Origin: Minutocellus sp. GHC0000111
Lineage: Eukaryota
DNA length: 64,000 nt
Assembly: GCA_977018835.1 (NCBI GenBank)
Contig: OZ361257.1
Location: 2,170,001-2,234,000 of the forward strand
Direction: 5' to 3'
In this document: one piece after another, positions 2,342-12,878 of the stretch
Layout of the letters: each line of letters starts with the position of its first letter
Position numbering within the stretch: the first letter of the stretch is position 1
The notes under the pieces: model-generated
What the model was told of the DNA's origin: nothing
What the model saw: only the letters and a program-made list of their open reading frames with translations
The model's database searches: none
Program-made: the position numbers and the translations under genes

Positions 2342-3768
2342 TCATTTAGATAGCAGTTCAGCTTCATCCCCCCCAACCGCCAATGCACTGTTCATTTTAC
2401 TGGCTTCAGGAGCTTTTCTATTATCAGTTGAACTCGTTTGCCGTTGGCATTGTTGCGCCACAATTTCTTCTTTGACTTCCCGCACGGTCTCCAAAAATTT
2501 ACGTCCGAATACATCACTCGGCTCCAGCGTCATTCCCTCAGCCCATTCGTTCCAAGCATTCACCAAAATGAATTTGTCGTCACCCCGAGCATCTTTATGG
2601 ATACAGCAATATTCGTAATGCATTGCGGCCTTGAGAGAATCCCTGAATGTCGCCACCACTCCTTCACTATCCTTGTCGCTCAATATTCTAGCCTCCTCGA
2701 ATGATCGACGAGGTGTGTTATCGAATGACACGATGATGCCAGGTATTTCCGTTGAATGCTGTTGATCGCTGCGCTTGACGGCAATGTCCCTGCCGTTCGA
2801 GCTTGCTTCAACACACCAATCTGGGACAGTCAATGTCCTATTGGTCCACTCCGCTGGGTTTGGATAGGCCACCGTTCGATTGTAAGTATCAAATCCTTTG
2901 AAGCGCTGGATACCACGGAAGGGATAAAAGCTCTGGAGATCCGCATGGGGGCGGGTTAATCCGACGGTAAAATACATTCCATTAAATCCGTCCTTTATTG
3001 CGAGCCGACGGAACTCGTCAAGCACTGGCGCCGCCTTCGGCTTCTTTTGATAGAGCATGAACAGCGGCTGCCCATCAATTTTGATATAATTCTTGTGGTG
3101 GAAGAATCGTCGCAACCAGTTGTAATGCTCTTCAATTTTAGATTGTCCTTCGGCTTCATTTGGATCAGGAAATTTTGCAGTTGTAGGACACCATCTTTTG
3201 GTTGTTTCATATCACTGCCGTTTCCCCCAGAACTCTGCCACGTATTCACCCACTTCATGGCAGCCCAATGCAGACAAAATGGCACATCTGGTTCTCCATC
3301 CTTGAGCATCAACTCCAACGGTGTCTCCAGATTCGGCCCAGGATGTTCTTCGTCGTAAAACCAATAATGATGATAGGCAAAAGCGTCGATACCATATTCC
3401 CTGGCAAGCTCCCCTTGCTTTCGCCTAACGTCAGACGCCGTGTCTGACAAGTCATAATAACCAAGTTCCGTTGGTCTTGGAATTTGATACCCCAGTCGAT
3501 TCGTCTTGGGAGCTCGACGTAAGCTGTCCCAGTCAGTGAAATTCACCCCCCATAGGCGATCATTGATGGGATCTGGATGAAATTGGGGGAAATACAGGGC
3601 AAGTATACGCGGTAGCGACGGATGTGCTGCTGACGAATTTGTGTTCGTTCGTTGTTTGTTGCCCTGACCGAGTGCCAAATTATGACGGTGAAGAGAAAAT
3701 AACTGAAGATTGGTGAGGAACCAAAAGAGAGCCAGCGATCCCAAAATGATTGTTTGAATCCTCATCAT
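2342..3768 (-). CDS. WbsX-family (GH99-like) glycosyltransferase, type II membrane; frameshift near 3170
   Basis: ALYFPQFH, FTDW, P-ELGYYDL, YGIDAFAYHHYWF, NYIKIDGQP, FDNTPRR and VNAWNEWAEG motifs split over ORFs 2995-3768 and 2342-3115; the shift falls in an A/T run. Confidence 0.85.
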
Positions 3769-4049
3769 TTATTTGCGATCGACGGGTACTAGCTAGCTAC
3801 GTAGCTGCTCTAGTTACCGTAGTAGGAGCAGTTGCAGCATGCGGCCCCAGCGCGTCCCATGGCGCAGGGCGGCCGAAAAATGGACCCATCACGGTCGGGA
3901 CCCCAATGGCCTTATTACGTCATTTCAGAAACCAAGGCATCTTGAAGGTCAGATTCGTTCGACTGTAAAGGAAACCCGGCACTTTTTCCGGAAGAGTGCA
4001 AGACGCCGCCTGCGCTCTCGCTCGCGATCGCTCGCGATCGATCGCTCGG

Positions 4050-5699: not shown

Positions 5700-6293
5700 G
5701 TGGACGGTTTGCGACCCGTCGGCGGCCGCTCCAATGGACGAGGGACGAGGGGTCAGCGTCGTCCGATGCCTCGTCCGCCATGGACAGCGTCATGGTTACA
5801 GACGCTCAATCAGATCTCGCCGCCGGATAGTAACGACGGGGTGCCGAGCAGCCGTTGCGCTTATCACCAAGAGACGCAACAATAATACATGTAGCAATGA
5901 CATGAGAGGGAGAGGCGACTGCGAAGGTTGAATTCAAACGAAGAGGTGCTCAGAGCGCCGGCCGCCGCGCCCCGCGCGCGCCGGTTGGCCGAAGGGCGTT
6001 TCTGCAATGACGTAAAAAGGCCATTGGGGTCCCGACCGTGATGCTCGGCGAGTTTGCTCGCGGGACCGCCATCAAACCAACACCACAAGCGAGCCGCCGC
6101 GCAACCCGCCCGCTAACCGTCGCCGAACTGCCAAGCCGCCGCCGCCGGCGTTACAGCCGAATCTCTAAAACGAAGTAGGAAGAGTCGAACAAACAAGGGA
6201 GTCTGGCTCTTGGTGTGGGAAGGAGGACGTACTTCTTGCACCAATGGTACCGACAAGACCATAAGGAATTTGCTCGACTGGCGACTGCCGAAC

Positions 6294-7097
6294 ATGAAGA
6301 AATTCACACGACGACTTGCATCGATGTGTTGTTTCTTCGTTCTTCTTCTGCGCATTTTCAGTACCGAACAAAGACGAAATAATTCCATTCAGCAAGTTTT
6401 ATTGCCAATGGGACAGCAATTCGTCGATTCTATCCTGTCCTCAAATGCTGGTGGTAGTGCCGTTTTTGAGAAGGCCATTGATACCAAGGCCCAACAGTTG
6501 AGCGCGCAGAACTTGCGTTACTACATGTATGACGAACCAGAAATTACTTTGAAGGGATGGATATTCAAGCGGCACCCGGACAATTTTATTTTCTATCAGT
6601 CAAGGCGAGAGGGGTCCTGGTTCAATGCAACCATATATCGCCATGCGCCCATCACCAACATCACAAATTCCACCGGTTTGTTCCCGAAGAGTAGCATTGG
6701 ATTTGGACTGGAATCAGAGGACTGGTTTCGGCAATATAGAGACTCTAAATTCTGTTTGGTCGTAAGAGGCGACAATCCCATGACACACTCGCATTGGAGA
6801 GCAATACGAAACGGTTGCATTCCAGTCATTGCATCGGATTCCTTGCCAATATATTCCCCTCTTTTCAAGTCCACAATGAATGTCCTCGATTACGCCATCT
6901 TTGTAGGAGAAAGTGAACTTGTTGAGAATCCAGAAGGGGCTTTGCTCAAGCTGACCACAATGAGTGTTACCGATATTGAGACAAAGATTAGGCATTTGGA
7001 TTTCGCTCAACGAGTGATATTCACTGATCATCCCAACAGCTTGTTTGTGCCGGCGTTTTTGAGGGAGGCAACAAAGGCCACTGAAGTGAAGTTGTAG
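6294..7097 (+). CDS. Exostosin-family (GT47) glycosyltransferase, possibly internally shortened
   Basis: N-terminal TM anchor; YYMYD and SKFCLVVRGD...AIRNGCIPVIASD motifs. Confidence 0.8.
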   Translation: MKKFTRRLASMCCFFVLLLRIFSTEQRRNNSIQQVLLPMGQQFVDSILSSNAGGSAVFEKAIDTKAQQLSAQNLRYYMYDEPEITLKGWIFKRHPDNFIFYQSRREGSWFNATIYRHAPITNITNSTGLFPKSSIGFGLESEDWFRQYRDSKFCLVVRGDNPMTHSHWRAIRNGCIPVIASDSLPIYSPLFKSTMNVLDYAIFVGESELVENPEGALLKLTTMSVTDIETKIRHLDFAQRVIFTDHPNSLFVPAFLREATKATEVKL

Positions 7098-7137: not shown

Positions 7138-7730
7138 CACAGGCACAATGGTGCTCGTAACCTCTGACTACTTATCCTCGCTTTCTTCGGCATCAGAACG
7201 GAAAACGATGGATGAAGCACAATTGCCCGCGCTTGACCAACAAGACGAGGAGGACATACCCGACGATCATTACAGTAAGAACTATCCAAATGCAGGATGG
7301 CGAGGCTACGCAAATCCGCAATGGGGCGGATATTTGGATGCCCTGTCGAGCAATTGTCTACAAGAGGGGAAGAAGTCTGATTATGGCGACGATATCAGAT
7401 GGGGGGCTGAGGTTTATCTCAATTCGATAGAAGGATGAAGGCAGCTGAAGAAGCAAAAATTGTGATTTTGTCTCGAAATATTCCAGAAAGGCTGTGTTTG
7501 ATGATGGCGACGATATCAGAAAAGGTGCTGAGGTTTATCTTAATTCGATAGAATCGGCTGAAGGCAGCTGAAGAAGCAAAATACACGTAAAGATTTTGTC
7601 TCGAAATATTCGAGAAAGGCTGCGTTCGATAAATGTCTCCACTGCCAAATCTCAGGTGTGGGGATTATAGAAGAGTTGTGTTGCATAATCTAACTAATGT
7701 GTGACCATTTGGTGCTGGATCGTCGTTCTC
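7138..7730 (+). pseudogene. 5'-truncated duplicate of the gene at 1691-2164 plus its 3' flank (ORF 7148-7438), with an internal ~120-bp tandem duplication
   Basis: Near-identical to 1831-2333; lacks the targeting N-terminus; 7383-7503 is repeated at 7504-7630. Confidence 0.85.
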
Positions 7731-7870
7731 GTTTACATGTGCTCGAATTCATAATGTTGGCATCTATCTAAAGGAATGGCACGTGGGTGGCGATTGTGTA
7801 ATATAATTTCATGCTGCCATACGTGCAACGTGCAATGCGCCAATGTGCACCAAATGCCATATTGGTAGCT

Positions 7871-9504
7871 TCAAACTAGAGCCACCACCGCCAGAGTCGC
7901 CAAGGCAACCCCAGATTCTGGTAGGACGAAAGCGGAAGAAGACACGTCCGATGCGTCATCTCCAGCGCCTAAAGACTCATCGCCCCTGGACTTGTGGCGC
8001 AACAGCCAAGCTTTGAGCACGTCGGCTGCCATTGTAAGTGCAATGTTCCGGCCAGGACATACTCGGGTACCATCACCTGTTGGATTATAACCAATGCCAT
8101 TGTAGTTCAATATTTGTGACAGGAGATTGCTTCGCTTGTGGTCAAACTTTTGTGGATTCGGAAAGACCTTTGGGTCCAAGCTGCCAAGTCCGAGACTTGC
8201 AGCGACGACAGTGCCATTTGGGAAGATGATGGATTCTCCATTGACGTTGAATGGCGTTGGCTCTGACAGGATAATGTTGATATTGTTTACTGGAGATTTG
8301 ATTCTGCCAGCCTCGAGGACAGCAGCTTGATAATGAAAGAGGACGAAAGTCATTTAGTGTATCGCATTACAATGTAGGTAGAAGATGGATATTAAGTACT
8401 TGCAGCAAGGTACGAATCTCAATCCACACTTTGCAACTTACCTGCGATGTCGCCATGCTTACTTTCGTCAATTTGCATCATATAATCTCGTGGAATTTGC
8501 GTAAATAGGTTGTCTACCAAGTTCCGCCCACCTCCCAAGGCAGCGATCCCAAATATAGGCACAAGCTCATCGGCCCACTCCTTCTTGGATAGGTTGTTAT
8601 TTTTGTCCGATGGACTGTAATCAGCAAGTGACGGAGAATTTTGGATCAAACTACTGAGTTGTTCCTGCGCTTGTTTGATTCCGGCATACTGCTCTGGGCT
8701 GACAGGAGAAGGATCAAGAATTGCGGCAATGGCATATCCTGGGGTCTGCCACAGCCCTCGTAGGTTGGCAACAAGCTCATCATCGACTTCTACGTCGAAC
8801 AGTGCCTTCATCAGATATCGGCATGTAAATTCCTCAGAGAGTCGTTTGGTAACAGAAGGGTCTACATGTACGCCCTTGTCAATTCCACCGCTCTCACTGA
8901 TGACTTCAGAGACGAGGCGATCGACGTAGGAGGCAAGGGCCAGCTTCACATCTTCCTCCTGTTGGACTCGAATTTGTGCTTTGGCAATTGTATCGAACCA
9001 GATGAAGTCGTGAAGGGTCTGGTGGATGCCTGTTCTGCCGTCGTCAGTATCAGTTCCAGGGTCCGATAAGGATAGAAGGAAGTTTGGCGGCAGGCGATCT
9101 AGATTGATCCTCGCCCGTCCGAGGAAGGCACCTCGTACTTGCGATGACTGAATGATTTGCGTTACGTCGTTGTGCTCTCCAATGACGAGCCTACCCAAAC
9201 TCGCGAAGTTCCTCGTTGTCCCCCCACCACAGCTCTCGACGCGGCTGGTAAGGAATGCCAGCGGATCTTTATTGTACTGGACAAAGTCTTGCAGATAAAG
9301 GTTGTCGTTCATAGCTGCATTCTCCTCACTTGGATTGAGGATGTTGAAAAGCTGAATATCGCAAGATTTCTGTAGGTCAGAAGAAGGAGATCTGCCGCCA
9401 GTTACAGGCGCAATGCCTGTCGCTTCTACAGCGCCGGTAGTTACGCGGATGCCAATACATGATGCTACGACGAGCAGTCGTCCCCGTTGACTGAGAAGGC
9501 GCAT
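7871..9504 (-). CDS. CYP74-clan-like cytochrome P450 (fatty-acid hydroperoxide-metabolising type); exons 9504-8442 and 8325-7871
   Basis: ExxR (VLEAGR), DPKVFPNPQKF, extended heme loop YNGIGYNPTGDGTRVCPG, I-helix IAALGG lacking AGxDT; the phase-1 GT-AG intron 8326-8441 splices in frame. Confidence 0.85.
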
Positions 9505-9800
9505 TGCTCGGTCTACTCTTCGAAAAATCACTTGAGAGGAATTGCCCTATCTATTGCAGAAGCAGCAGAGCTGGTCACAGATGACAGAAATCTTCCAGAA
9601 TTTGCCCAAAGTTCCGGCCGGACGCGTCGCTCGCTGTCGCCACGCACTGGTACGTACGTAGCGTACTACGTAGTTCCGGTACGTACTAGTAATAGTACGC
9701 GCGCCAATGAATAATTTCGGTCTGTTTGTCGCCATTCTGGAATCGGCCGGAAGCAGCGATGAAAGGAGAAAAGGAGCAAGAGGAATGAGGCAGTGAGGCA

Positions 9801-11372
9801 ATGAGTCTACCATCGTCACTCTCATCATCGTGCCAAACATGGTATGAGTGGTCCACAGCTGGAACCATCGGTGGGCGGTATTTCAGCGGTAGCGAGCCGA
9901 GAGGCGTGGATGATCATCTCTCCTTTTTTGACACACCTCTCTTTAGGAAGCTCGACTTTCTCGAGCAGATGCGCGCCAACAATGCTACGGACTTGGCCGC
10001 GATAATACCAGATGGAAGAATAATGGGAGCATATTGGCCATCGGGAGAAGGAGAGTCCTTCCTGGCTTCGGGTTTGTGGAATTTTCATTTCTTTGGTGAC
10101 GAGGGGGGGTGGCTCTCAGCCAACCTTGGCTTTGGAGTTGGCAATTCAACATCTAGCAGTCCAGCCGTAGTAACAGGGGGAAGCGGGTCTTATCTTGGAG
10201 CTATGGGAAGGATCGAAACAATGGTACTCTCTTCAGATCCATTTGTTATCCAATACGAGTTTTGCTCGGAAGAGGCAAAGACTTTTGACAAGAGTGATTG
10301 CAAAGACGTCTTTGAGTGGTCGTCCTTTGGATCTGGAGAAATAGACGGTGAAATCTTTAGTGGGAGTGTCCTAGCTGCGCCTCATACCGGTGTGGCCAAC
10401 ACTCCAATATTTGCAAGTCAAGATGTCGAGACCTCTCCCCTCATCGGACGTCTCGTAGCTCAGTATTTCCTCGATTCAATTACGACTGCATCTGGGTCCT
10501 TCAACTTCCAGTTCTTCCCTGATGCAGGGCTAAAAGATGATGTAAACAATTCTGGTACAGTAGAGACCTCGGCAGGTGCAGTTTCGATAAATTTCGGCTT
10601 TGGGCCTCTCGACACAACAATGTTTGGATCTTTTACTCGGGGCACTCCAAATATTATTGTCGGCGGAACTGGGGCGTTTGCAGGGCTCGTCGGAAGTATG
10701 CGTGATCGTGCCGTCAATTCCGACCCTCTTGTTTTCAACTACCAAATCTGCCCCTCCCAAGACGCCAAACCGGCACAAGAGGTGATGACTTCACCATGTC
10801 GCAAGATTTACGAGTGGTCAACTAGCGGAGAATTCAATGAATATAGATTTAGCGGCAGCGTTGAGTACGAAGGCGGAGCAATCGGCGTGTTTGACACCCC
10901 CTTTTTCGATCAACCAGATGTGGCCAATGCCAATGTTTCGGGGAGAGTCATGGGGTACTACGTCCCCAATAAAGGAGGATCCGTCGTGGGGAATTGGAAT
11001 TTTGCATTCTTTGATCATGATCACGACCCACTTGGTGACGTGCCAACTGAACATGAGGATTGGATAGCTGCGTCACTTGGATTTTATCAGGACGGAGCAG
11101 ACAAATCCACCCAGGACGGAGTACCCAATATCATCATGGGAGGATCAGGCGCATTCGCAGCATTTTCAGGTACCATCACAAGCAATGTCATCTCGAGCGA
11201 GCCTTTTGTAATTGATTTGGAGATTTGTTCATCAGGTGCAAAGGGTGGCGACGCAGCATCAGGGGACAAGCCAATGGACGGTTCGTCTGCTTCTGGTGGA
11301 ATCGAAAGGTGTTGCCATTTCCTATTGTCGCTCATTGCTACAGTGTATGCTATTTGGTGTTCAATAATGTAG
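9801..11372 (+). CDS. Protein with three tandem allene oxide cyclase/dirigent-like domains and a GPI-like tail; 5' end uncertain
   Basis: Three repeats, each C-x3-[YF]EWS...GG[ST]G-x-[YF]-x-[GA]...C, at 9831-10265, 10299-10751 and 10797-11228; hydrophobic C-terminus. Confidence 0.8.
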   Translation: MSLPSSLSSSCQTWYEWSTAGTIGGRYFSGSEPRGVDDHLSFFDTPLFRKLDFLEQMRANNATDLAAIIPDGRIMGAYWPSGEGESFLASGLWNFHFFGDEGGWLSANLGFGVGNSTSSSPAVVTGGSGSYLGAMGRIETMVLSSDPFVIQYEFCSEEAKTFDKSDCKDVFEWSSFGSGEIDGEIFSGSVLAAPHTGVANTPIFASQDVETSPLIGRLVAQYFLDSITTASGSFNFQFFPDAGLKDDVNNSGTVETSAGAVSINFGFGPLDTTMFGSFTRGTPNIIVGGTGAFAGLVGSMRDRAVNSDPLVFNYQICPSQDAKPAQEVMTSPCRKIYEWSTSGEFNEYRFSGSVEYEGGAIGVFDTPFFDQPDVANANVSGRVMGYYVPNKGGSVVGNWNFAFFDHDHDPLGDVPTEHEDWIAASLGFYQDGADKSTQDGVPNIIMGGSGAFAAFSGTITSNVISSEPFVIDLEICSSGAKGGDAASGDKPMDGSSASGGIERCCHFLLSLIATVYAIWCSIM

Positions 11373-11495
11373 AAAAAAATAGGACCAACAGTATCAATAT
11401 CATATTCTCTATTCTATTTTAGCATAAAGTCTGGGTTCGTGTTATCACTTCCAACACTTTATGCATGCGCGTAGCTACGTAAAAGGCACACGCAA

Positions 11496-12878
11496 CTACA
11501 TCGATTCAGATCCGTGCGCATGAGCAGTCGCGGCTACCGAAATACTCGCGACTGGCTCGGCTTCCTCTTCGAGGTATACCCACTTATCGAGCTCCTCCTT
11601 GTAGTGCAACAACCGAAAGGCTCGATTTTGGACGGGAATGCCAGTGTCAATCAGCTCGTCGATGGCCACCTTGGAGAAAAGGGGACGCTCGCTGGCGCCC
11701 TCCCTGCGCTCCTCGTGCATTTCGATACCCTCCCAAATGCAGTCCAAGACGTCGCGAGCATTGAGCAGGCGGCCGACCTGGGCCTTCTGCCGAAGGCCCG
11801 ACGGATGGTTCTTGTAGAGGAAGTCACTCAGCGCGCAGACGTCAGAAAGGATCGCCTCATTGTAAAAGTATACGGGCGTATTGGTGCCGTCGGCGTTCTC
11901 GGCAGGTCCCTTGCTGACACAGGTGAGAAGATGTTCAAAAATATCCTTGGCCTTCTCCTCAATGCGCTTCCTCCCACCAGGACGAGAAGCAATCGTTTCC
12001 AGCCTCTCGGCACTGGTGAGGCAGAGGCCATTGTAGAAATCAGCAAATGGTTCGATCAGCCCCTCCTCGGATCCTTGATGCTGCCAGAATATGACCGTGT
12101 CGAGGGGAAAAGCACGGCACATCATGCGACAATGTTCGCAGGGTGGAGGATTGGGGTTGGGCTGGCCATTGATCAGATCCTCGGCCGGGTCCTTCCGAGG
12201 ACAGCCGGGTCCGTTGATGGCCTTGATGCCCGACCGGAGCAGTCCCAACTTGAAGCCACCGCACAACGAGTGGATGAGGGCAATCATAATGGGCCGGCCC
12301 TGTTGGTCACTGGCGCAGGTTTCCGGGTCGTACTGGAACCACCCGGAATCCTCCGGATCGTGATCGCACAGACCGAGGAGGTTGGATTCCTCCAACTTGG
12401 GAAATCGGGAGAGGAAGGGGGTGACGCGGCTGGCGGCGTCGGCGTTGATTCGGTGCAAATTGCAGTTGCCGGGGTGGCACTCGACGATGCAAAACATGTT
12501 GACCTCCGTCACGTTGGGGAAGCGGTAGGTCGGACGAAGGTGCATTTCCGATGGCTTCATGATGCACAGGCGGGTGATTCGGGGCGTCACCTCTCGGATG
12601 AAGGCCTTGCTGACGAGGCAGGTATCGAGCACCTCCTTGTAGAGGAGGAACTCCATGCTGAGGGCCCACACTTCGGGAGGGAGACAACCAATGTTGGCAG
12701 CCAGTGGCGCGCTCTTTCGGTTGGCGCGGTTCTTGTTGGCGTTGGATGTCCGTTTCTTCTTGCTGTTGCTGTTGTCTCCGTCGGCATCTTCCACGACCTC
12801 CGACATCTTTCGTCGCTTGGTGGGAGGGCTGATATCATCCACGGCGTACTCGTAGATCTTTTTGCTGCGGGTCTTCAT
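11496..12878 (-). CDS. F-box-like protein
   Basis: LPPEVWALSMEFL...VSKAF F-box pattern after a basic NLS-like N-terminus. Confidence 0.65.
   Translation of the reverse strand: MKTRSKKIYEYAVDDISPPTKRRKMSEVVEDADGDNSNSKKKRTSNANKNRANRKSAPLAANIGCLPPEVWALSMEFLLYKEVLDTCLVSKAFIREVTPRITRLCIMKPSEMHLRPTYRFPNVTEVNMFCIVECHPGNCNLHRINADAASRVTPFLSRFPKLEESNLLGLCDHDPEDSGWFQYDPETCASDQQGRPIMIALIHSLCGGFKLGLLRSGIKAINGPGCPRKDPAEDLINGQPNPNPPPCEHCRMMCRAFPLDTVIFWQHQGSEEGLIEPFADFYNGLCLTSAERLETIASRPGGRKRIEEKAKDIFEHLLTCVSKGPAENADGTNTPVYFYNEAILSDVCALSDFLYKNHPSGLRQKAQVGRLLNARDVLDCIWEGIEMHEERREGASERPLFSKVAIDELIDTGIPVQNRAFRLLHYKEELDKWVYLEEEAEPVASISVAATAHAHGSESM

Follow-up and report, generated by a model that had tools for sequence, protein, structure and literature searches.

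Does the plus strand around positions 9831..11228 of the window (the whole 64,000-nt stretch analyzed here) encode a single-chain mimic of the AOC trimer, as a sequence-only reading had proposed, and what could such a protein do at this site? We observed that the barrel chain described in that reading stands and that its span covers the repeats, but that 10 codons at its start were missed, as were 47 residues at the C-terminus comprising a spacer and a hydrophobic tail, and that both the tail and an adjacent P450 gene had been overlooked. The features of the locus are as follows:

7871..8325, minus strand: exon 2 of the P450 gene, with ExxR, the heme Cys (residue 444) and a GPI-signal-like hydrophobic tail (Pfam p450, E 5e-11)
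8326..8441, minus strand: putative 116-bp GT..AG intron of the P450 gene, from frame joining (no RNA contigs spanning it)
8442..9504, minus strand: exon 1 of the P450 gene, with a signal-peptide-like start and an I-helix without the acid/Thr pair or the CYP74 Asn (from the alignment of relatives)
9505..9800, no strand: 296-bp spacer between the divergent genes, likely a bidirectional promoter (from the gene starts)
9801..11372, plus strand: single-exon ORF of 523 aa, three AOC/dirigent-type barrels and a tail (in-frame stop at 9786-9788)
9831..10265, plus strand: barrel 1, Cys11-Cys155, with Glu16 and Tyr78 (sequence, model, structural match)
10299..10751, plus strand: barrel 2, Cys167-Cys317, with Glu172 and Tyr222, the most divergent repeat (sequence, structural match)
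10797..11228, plus strand: barrel 3, Cys333-Cys476, with Glu338 and Tyr387 (sequence, structural match, weak Pfam Dirigent)
11229..11369, plus strand: Ser/Gly/Asp-rich spacer and terminal hydrophobic stretch, probably GPI-signal-like or a tail anchor (hydropathy)

All seven motifs quoted in the sequence-only reading lie in frame within the ORF at 9801-11372(+), with repeat starts at 9831, 10299 and 10797 and GG motifs at 10170, 10659 and 11136. As had been noted, a Cys closes every repeat (residues 155, 317 and 476), the final codon ending at 11228. The three Cys-bracketed repeats of about 145 aa are 29-35% identical end to end in pairwise BLASTP, and the repeat-versus-repeat E values of 3e-19, 2e-24 and 2e-23 are far beyond chance; the linkers between them measure 11 and 15 residues, and the protein contains four N-glycosylation sequons. 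The gene is real, because it has full-length relatives (8 proteins of 433-576 aa with 35-86% identity among 7,988 scored candidates), because a contig of another run, possibly related to the source, spans 7600-11700 with 21 substitutions and with indels outside the coding sequence only, and because 14 of 16 RNA-library contig pieces (four runs, 2 studies) fall on the barrel ORF, with 1 on the P450. These RNA-library contigs are compatible with expression of the barrel gene, although contigs cannot prove transcription. Read variants in the barrels gave a mixed selection signal, 8 of 15 being synonymous in one run and 1 of 7 in another among the variants listed. At 11216-11218, where barrel 3 forms its final strand, the window reads Asp-Leu and two other runs as well as most relatives read Glu-Trp, so that either an allele or an assembly error is present there.

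Profile searching of 1.84 billion representatives yielded 44 matches at E<=0.001, comprising triple, double and single-domain proteins, and an informative protein name was attached to none of the barrel relatives that we looked up. We calculated a domain tree from 56 of the 109 domain rows, after removal of some fragments and of cluster members that were nearly identical. In the nearer lineage the repeats clustered by position (support 99/97, 99/94 and 99/95); for the two proteins furthest away, the tree left repeats 1 and 3 unresolved. Repeats at the same position share an identity of 0.54-0.57, compared to 0.33-0.42 across positions. Judging from this position-wise grouping and from the identities within and between positions, the triplication is old, the repeats having split apart early and each barrel having kept features of its own. 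No relative was found among 91 pattern matches in viral contigs, and a metagenome scan returned 1 locus of 2 kb without neighbours. In the ESM Atlas, taken as a lead only, the whole chain matched a plant dirigent (0.80) and repeat 3 matched giant-virus and bacterial clusters (0.82-0.86). As the Atlas clusters nearest repeat 3 include Nucleocytoviricota proteins, giant viruses may be carriers of the barrel family, again as a lead.

The AlphaFold model and structural search that had been proposed as a check on the fold recovered three AOC/dirigent-type barrels, with each repeat at Z 13-15. The AlphaFold2 model, based on 46 sequences, reached a pLDDT of 86.2 (84-86 for the five models) and a pTM of 0.88 and is composed of three all-beta units. 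By structural alignment, repeat 2 matched GePTS1 (Z 14.7, rmsd 2.7, 128 aligned residues; VIA), repeat 1 matched AtDIR6 (Z 13.8), PodA (Z 13.2) and AOC (Z 12.7-13.1, 123 aligned), and repeat 3 matched the dirigent domain of JAC1 (Z 13.2). The best 28 rows of the structural alignment were all small barrels of the AOC/dirigent kind, and a Foldseek-independent structure search had the same outcome. For the modeled repeats the Z values of dirigents, AOC and PodA are nearly tied. Shared traits of the superfamily, which includes PodA, DUF3224 and the spirotetronate cyclases, were present, namely the barrel fold and the GG motif before strand 7. On the basis of the model, each repeat almost certainly adopts an AOC/dirigent-type barrel fold. 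Large beta proteins crowded the Foldseek output for the whole model, in which dirigents took ranks 5, 7 and 9; no match at E<=0.001 came from the viral library. Over the two structural searches, no solved chain aligned across more than one barrel (longest alignment 133 residues). Three loosely linked domains usually give a much lower pTM, and the value observed here agrees with the compact arrangement claimed before. Because this high pTM goes along with such short linkers, the chain is predicted to form a compact unit and hence would quite probably pack as a pseudo-trimer, the trimer being the form described for AOC and dirigents (PMC4340379, PMC6218421).

AOC had been taken as the closest family, and by sequence this did not hold: the domain profiles matched dirigent structures only (E 1e-5 to 0.05), and neither the profile nor the single-sequence PDB searches gave an AOC sequence match at E<=10, the single-sequence search returning nothing relevant. 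The window protein did not match PF06351 at E<=1, and 2 of the 46 relatives matched it weakly (best E 0.0028). For Pfam Dirigent (PF03018) we obtained 24.2-25.0 bits against a cut-off of 29.1, with E 3e-5 in barrel 3, and 27 of the 46 relatives matched this family at E<=0.1; PF18678 (PodA / AOC_like) reached E 0.13 for the window protein. By the family tests run, the barrel protein falls outside both the AOC and the dirigent families and would be AOC-like in its fold and in one Glu of strand 1.

This Glu deserves a closer look. The alignment ranges start at residue 16 of AtAOC2 and at residue 11 of PpAOC, so that, given an ungapped strand, Glu16 falls on residues 23 and 18, and the excerpt of PMC13364333 gives the catalytic Glu of AOC as Glu23 in AtAOC2 and Glu18 in PpAOC. 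The earlier assignment of the Glu to the AOC catalytic place is therefore supported, as judged from the range ends with the first 8 residues assumed to be ungapped and not from a residue-level alignment. Its proposed retention in all three repeats applies to the window ORF, but 3 of 10 relatives have lost it from repeat 2: we found the Glu in repeat 1 of 8 of 8 relatives, repeat 2 of 7 of 10 and repeat 3 of 10 of 10, as well as in 20 of 24 single- or double-domain rows. On the modeled fold we lean towards a catalytic Glu in at least one barrel. The suggestion of possibly specialised sites also gained ground, as the repeats have diverged and hold position-specific residues. A Ser stands two residues after the Glu in all three repeats; in AOC this place is taken by an Asn, which belongs to the water-binding set Asn/Ser/Pro. 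The column of GePTS1 Tyr103 is occupied by Tyr78, Tyr222 and Tyr387 (Tyr in 5 of 8, 9 of 10 and 10 of 10 relatives, otherwise Phe), GePTS1 Tyr181 is kept in repeats 1 and 2, the Asp83 column holds Thr in the barrel repeats, and the Arg145 column holds Ser120, Thr282 and Val441. The excerpt of PMC7450108, which also lists the polar pocket set of GePTS1, describes the dirigent motif as Phe-His-Asp, with the catalytic Asp being Asp50 in GePTS1 and Asp40 in DRR206; this motif is absent from the repeats, which have Glu-Trp-Ser on that strand. Judged from the range starts, the register of the dirigent Asp is ambiguous and falls on Ser in 5LAL and 4REV, Trp in 6OOC and Glu in 6OOD. Since the Glu is at the AOC place, Tyr103 is kept, the dirigent Arg and Phe-His-Asp are gone and Ser replaces the AOC Asn, the pocket reads as a hybrid of AOC and dirigent features.

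The sequence-only reading had further described the protein as secreted, which is doubtful: the window ORF lacks a signal peptide, and its start, preceded closely by an in-frame stop, is ten residues away from Cys11. Five close clusters share this start and have no hydrophobic segment, four distant clusters have clear signal-like starts, and at locus L001 a stop lies four codons before the ATG with no AG between. We rejected a hidden upstream signal exon, as the 12 most hydrophobic of 51 in-frame splice candidates all begin within the opposite-strand coding sequence of the P450, and also a frameshift masking a signal peptide, as the contig of another run shows no indel from 9655 to the ORF. 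The hydrophobic C-terminal tail scored a hydropathy of at least 2.0 in 11 of the 12 triple proteins scored and 1.5 in the twelfth. Judged by these termini, the ancestral triple-barrel form looks GPI-anchored, and the window copy may be tail-anchored or reach the membrane via an unrecognised route. A clade of five single-barrel relatives without a visible signal (P0033, P0034, P0035, P0039 and P0043) also lacks the flanking Cys pair, which fits disulfides in the secreted forms, those of the window copy being putative.

The neighbouring P450 is unusual as well. Its intron is inferred because joining the frames yields 505 stop-free codons and because the product is colinear with intronless relatives. 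Most of the 46 relatives revealed by a profile search are about 410 aa long; they stem from diatoms and from bacteria (Methylococcales, Myxococcota, Acaryochloris), and Attheya and Chaetoceros are the only named eukaryotes among them. The acid/Thr pair is missing throughout the family, and the window P450 has Ala at the place of AtAOS Asn321, followed by an aligned Gly-Gly like that of plant AOS (AOS motif as given in the excerpt of PMC13049297, by which a non-polar residue above the heme does not speak against a peroxide isomerase). ExxR and the Cys ligand are present, together with Ser-Pro-Val (Pro-Pro-Val in some relatives) and a heme loop that is 8-9 residues longer on one register and shorter in several relatives; CYP74 features given in PMC8124189 are ExxR followed by a PPV-like motif and a nine-residue heme-loop insertion. 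We did not file the window P450 under CYP74, because no solved CYP74 was found among the best 60 of the 95 PDB matches of its profile search. Its model, with a bacterial relative as first row, reached a pLDDT of 48 and supports a generic P450 only. A GPI-like tail is present in the window P450 and in 0 of 36 full-length relatives; judged by this tail the enzyme appears to carry a GPI anchor, an oddity among P450s, and in the literature on GPI-anchored P450 in diatoms we found nothing relevant. In the family member P0095 an extended N-terminal leader includes a motif resembling the diatom plastid-targeting signal, and some family members may be plastid enzymes.

The P450 start at 9504 (-) and the barrel start at 9801 (+) lie head-to-head, 296 bp apart. 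In the 86%-identical relative the spacer measures about 330 bp, and the same layout can be deduced because the upstream extensions of barrel and P450 fit antisense over 22 codons (at most 6 in 30 shuffles); the P450 reading frame of this relative (P0017) stops early. By these sequences the linkage is found in one other lineage only, a close one. At three bacterial P450 loci we observed no adjacent barrel, lipoxygenase or redox gene (ORFs read; 7 of 17 ORFs scanned), the barrel profile matched 0 of 2 bacterial genomes with a P450 match, and a weak dirigent-like gene occurs about 350 kb from the P450 in 1 of 3 bacterial genomes. Co-occurrence with lipoxygenase was discarded as support, as it amounts to 1 of 3 P450 genomes compared to 10 of 301 genomes of Methylococcales, which is no enrichment; a lipoxygenase of a Methylococcales genome was recorded (L004, G001:C14:2139-3125). 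The ORFs of the window that were examined included none recognisable as lipoxygenase-like. Since the P450 has a signal peptide and the barrel protein has none, the two may face different compartments. That the P450 is a functional partner of the barrel protein is a possibility that we would sooner doubt than assume. Within the spacer, a cluster of short palindromic TACGTA/GTAC-type words occupies 9640-9705, with a similar word near 11465-11482 after the barrel gene, and these words are possibly regulatory.

The window reads as eukaryotic, with intron-broken genes, a long IleRS and ShK-domain and O-fucosyltransferase proteins, and a diatom host is likely in view of the named eukaryotic P450 relatives. 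A small gene lacking any Pfam match is duplicated locally, at 1849-2262 and 7150-7658 (87% over 377 bp), the two copies bracketing the glycosyltransferase genes; shorter repeats lie at 7375-7630 and a 46-bp inverted repeat at 3887-3932 / 5998-6043. A WbsX-type glycosyltransferase (PF14307) at 2342-3768 (-) is split over two overlapping frames, suggesting a frameshift or an intron, and an exostosin GT47 piece was found at 6210-7097.

Our preferred reading, which we put forward tentatively, is that of a tethered single-chain pseudo-trimer that needs no cofactor and works as a cyclase or as a catalyst steering stereochemistry, possibly with a P450 product as substrate. Each barrel would bind a hydrophobic intermediate, with the strand-1 Glu, like that of AOC, serving as an acid/base or stabilising a cation and the dirigent-type Tyr nearby. 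Fusion would let the three pockets differ, barrel 2 being the most altered and Glu-less in some lineages. The P450 would be peroxide-driven, because it is without the acid/Thr pair, seemingly secretory and away from reductase, and could supply the barrels with an unstable intermediate, most likely one derived from a fatty-acid hydroperoxide (epoxide, allene oxide or radical). In a true AOS-AOC pair, the P450 would convert a hydroperoxide to an allene oxide and the barrels would convert this to a chiral cyclopentenone (OPDA- or prostanoid-like). Such a pair is improbable, given that no AOC sequence matches at E<=10, that Ser stands where AOC has Asn, that the P450 carries Ala at the Asn321 place with no CYP74 among the best 60 of 95 PDB matches, and that lipoxygenase linkage is missing. 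What speaks for it nonetheless is the Glu at the AOC position, the I-helix Gly-Gly as in plant AOS at the acid/Thr place and the occurrence of the P450 family in diatoms and Acaryochloris, in addition to the ExxR-then-PV and a heme loop that is long on one register, which are among the CYP74 features listed in PMC8124189, and the complexes that plant AOS and AOC form according to PMC6627107.

Two further readings dispense with the P450 as partner or with catalysis as a whole. The barrel protein may serve other small-molecule or cell-wall chemistry, the adjacency being incidental in a compact genome: the fold hosts Diels-Alderases, PodA and pterocarpan synthase (Z 11-15 throughout), compact genomes often contain divergent genes separated by a short spacer, the linkage was seen in close relatives only and the signal peptides do not agree. 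We judge this fairly unlikely, as both genes are rare and unusual and both have GPI-like tails; since all 36 full-length P450 relatives are tailless, the two tails suggest adaptation to the same place. Little credence is given to a non-catalytic, surface-anchored ligand-binder or scaffold on the trimer fold with a structural Glu. The signal peptide plus tail of the distant relatives, the four sequons and the loss of the Glu from some repeats and single domains would suit such a binder, but no relative in the 35-86% identity range has lost the Glu from repeats 1 and 3, the residue lies where catalysis is known to occur, and position-specific pocket residues are conserved. The tethered catalyst remains our preferred reading, and its boldest form, a diatom-assembled, membrane-anchored two-gene oxylipin module with parts unrelated by descent to plant AOS-AOC, seems quite improbable to us. 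If true, a reductase-independent P450 would make an allene oxide or a related intermediate, and a single-chain barrel protein with three specialised pockets would cyclise it, giving chiral cyclopentenone or prostanoid-like signals in a jasmonate-like pathway.

The excerpt of PMC7450108 states that dirigent proteins are absent in algae, and we found no publication that deals with AOC- or dirigent-like proteins in diatoms, judging by title or abstract start and with subscription papers not covered. The locus would represent an unnamed AOC/dirigent-like family, likely of diatoms, that includes a fused form; the P450 beside it belongs to a family that is likewise unnamed and lacks the residues by which oxygen is usually activated. 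A fused chain would let the trimer pockets specialise, which a homotrimer cannot do. Taken together, the gene pair offers a lead to the enzymes that are still missing after the lipoxygenase step in diatoms, and a scaffold from nature on which multi-site barrel catalysts could be built.

Compared with known systems, the window P450 has in common with the CYP74 clan and other peroxide-isomerase P450s the missing acid/Thr pair, ExxR..PV and, on one register, an extended heme loop. It differs from the CYP74 clan in having no Asn at the Asn321 place and shows no special kinship to it among the best 60 of 95 PDB matches, and it belongs to a diatom and bacterial family of about 410 aa, signal and tail having been added in the lineage. 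The spirotetronate cyclases Cyc15, PyrI4, AbyU and PloI4 share the barrel fold (Z 10.8-13.5) and perform cofactor-free ring-closing chemistry, whereas identity is 12-15% and the window has no polyketide pathway context. PodA pyocyanin demethylase (5K21) and the bacterial dirigent-like/AOC_like proteins (PF18678) have the same fold (Z 13.2), and this group has membrane-tethered or exported members, like the tail of the window protein; the bacterial dirigent-like proteins tabulated in PMC9344732 are single-domain and 96-258 aa long. The plant dirigents GePTS1 (6OOC), PsPTS2 (8TH2), PsPTS1 (6OOD), AtDIR6 (5LAL) and DRR206 (4REV) have the barrel in common (Z 12.8-14.7, rmsd 2.7-3.2), are the best sequence matches (E 1e-5 to 1e-4) and share the GG motif and the Tyr103 equivalent. 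The window protein differs from them in having three domains per chain, in lacking Phe-His-Asp and Arg145/Arg141, in scoring below the Pfam cut-off and in coming from a likely algal host. Plant AOC (AtAOC2 2GIN, PpAOC1/2 4H6C/4H69) likewise has the barrel in common (Z 12.7-13.1, rmsd 2.6-3.0) and, if ungapped, the strand-1 Glu at the catalytic position, whereas the window protein gives no profile match to it and shows Ser after the Glu, a hydrophobic tail and no visible plastid targeting. Finally, AOC is a homotrimer, while the window protein carries its three barrels in a single chain.
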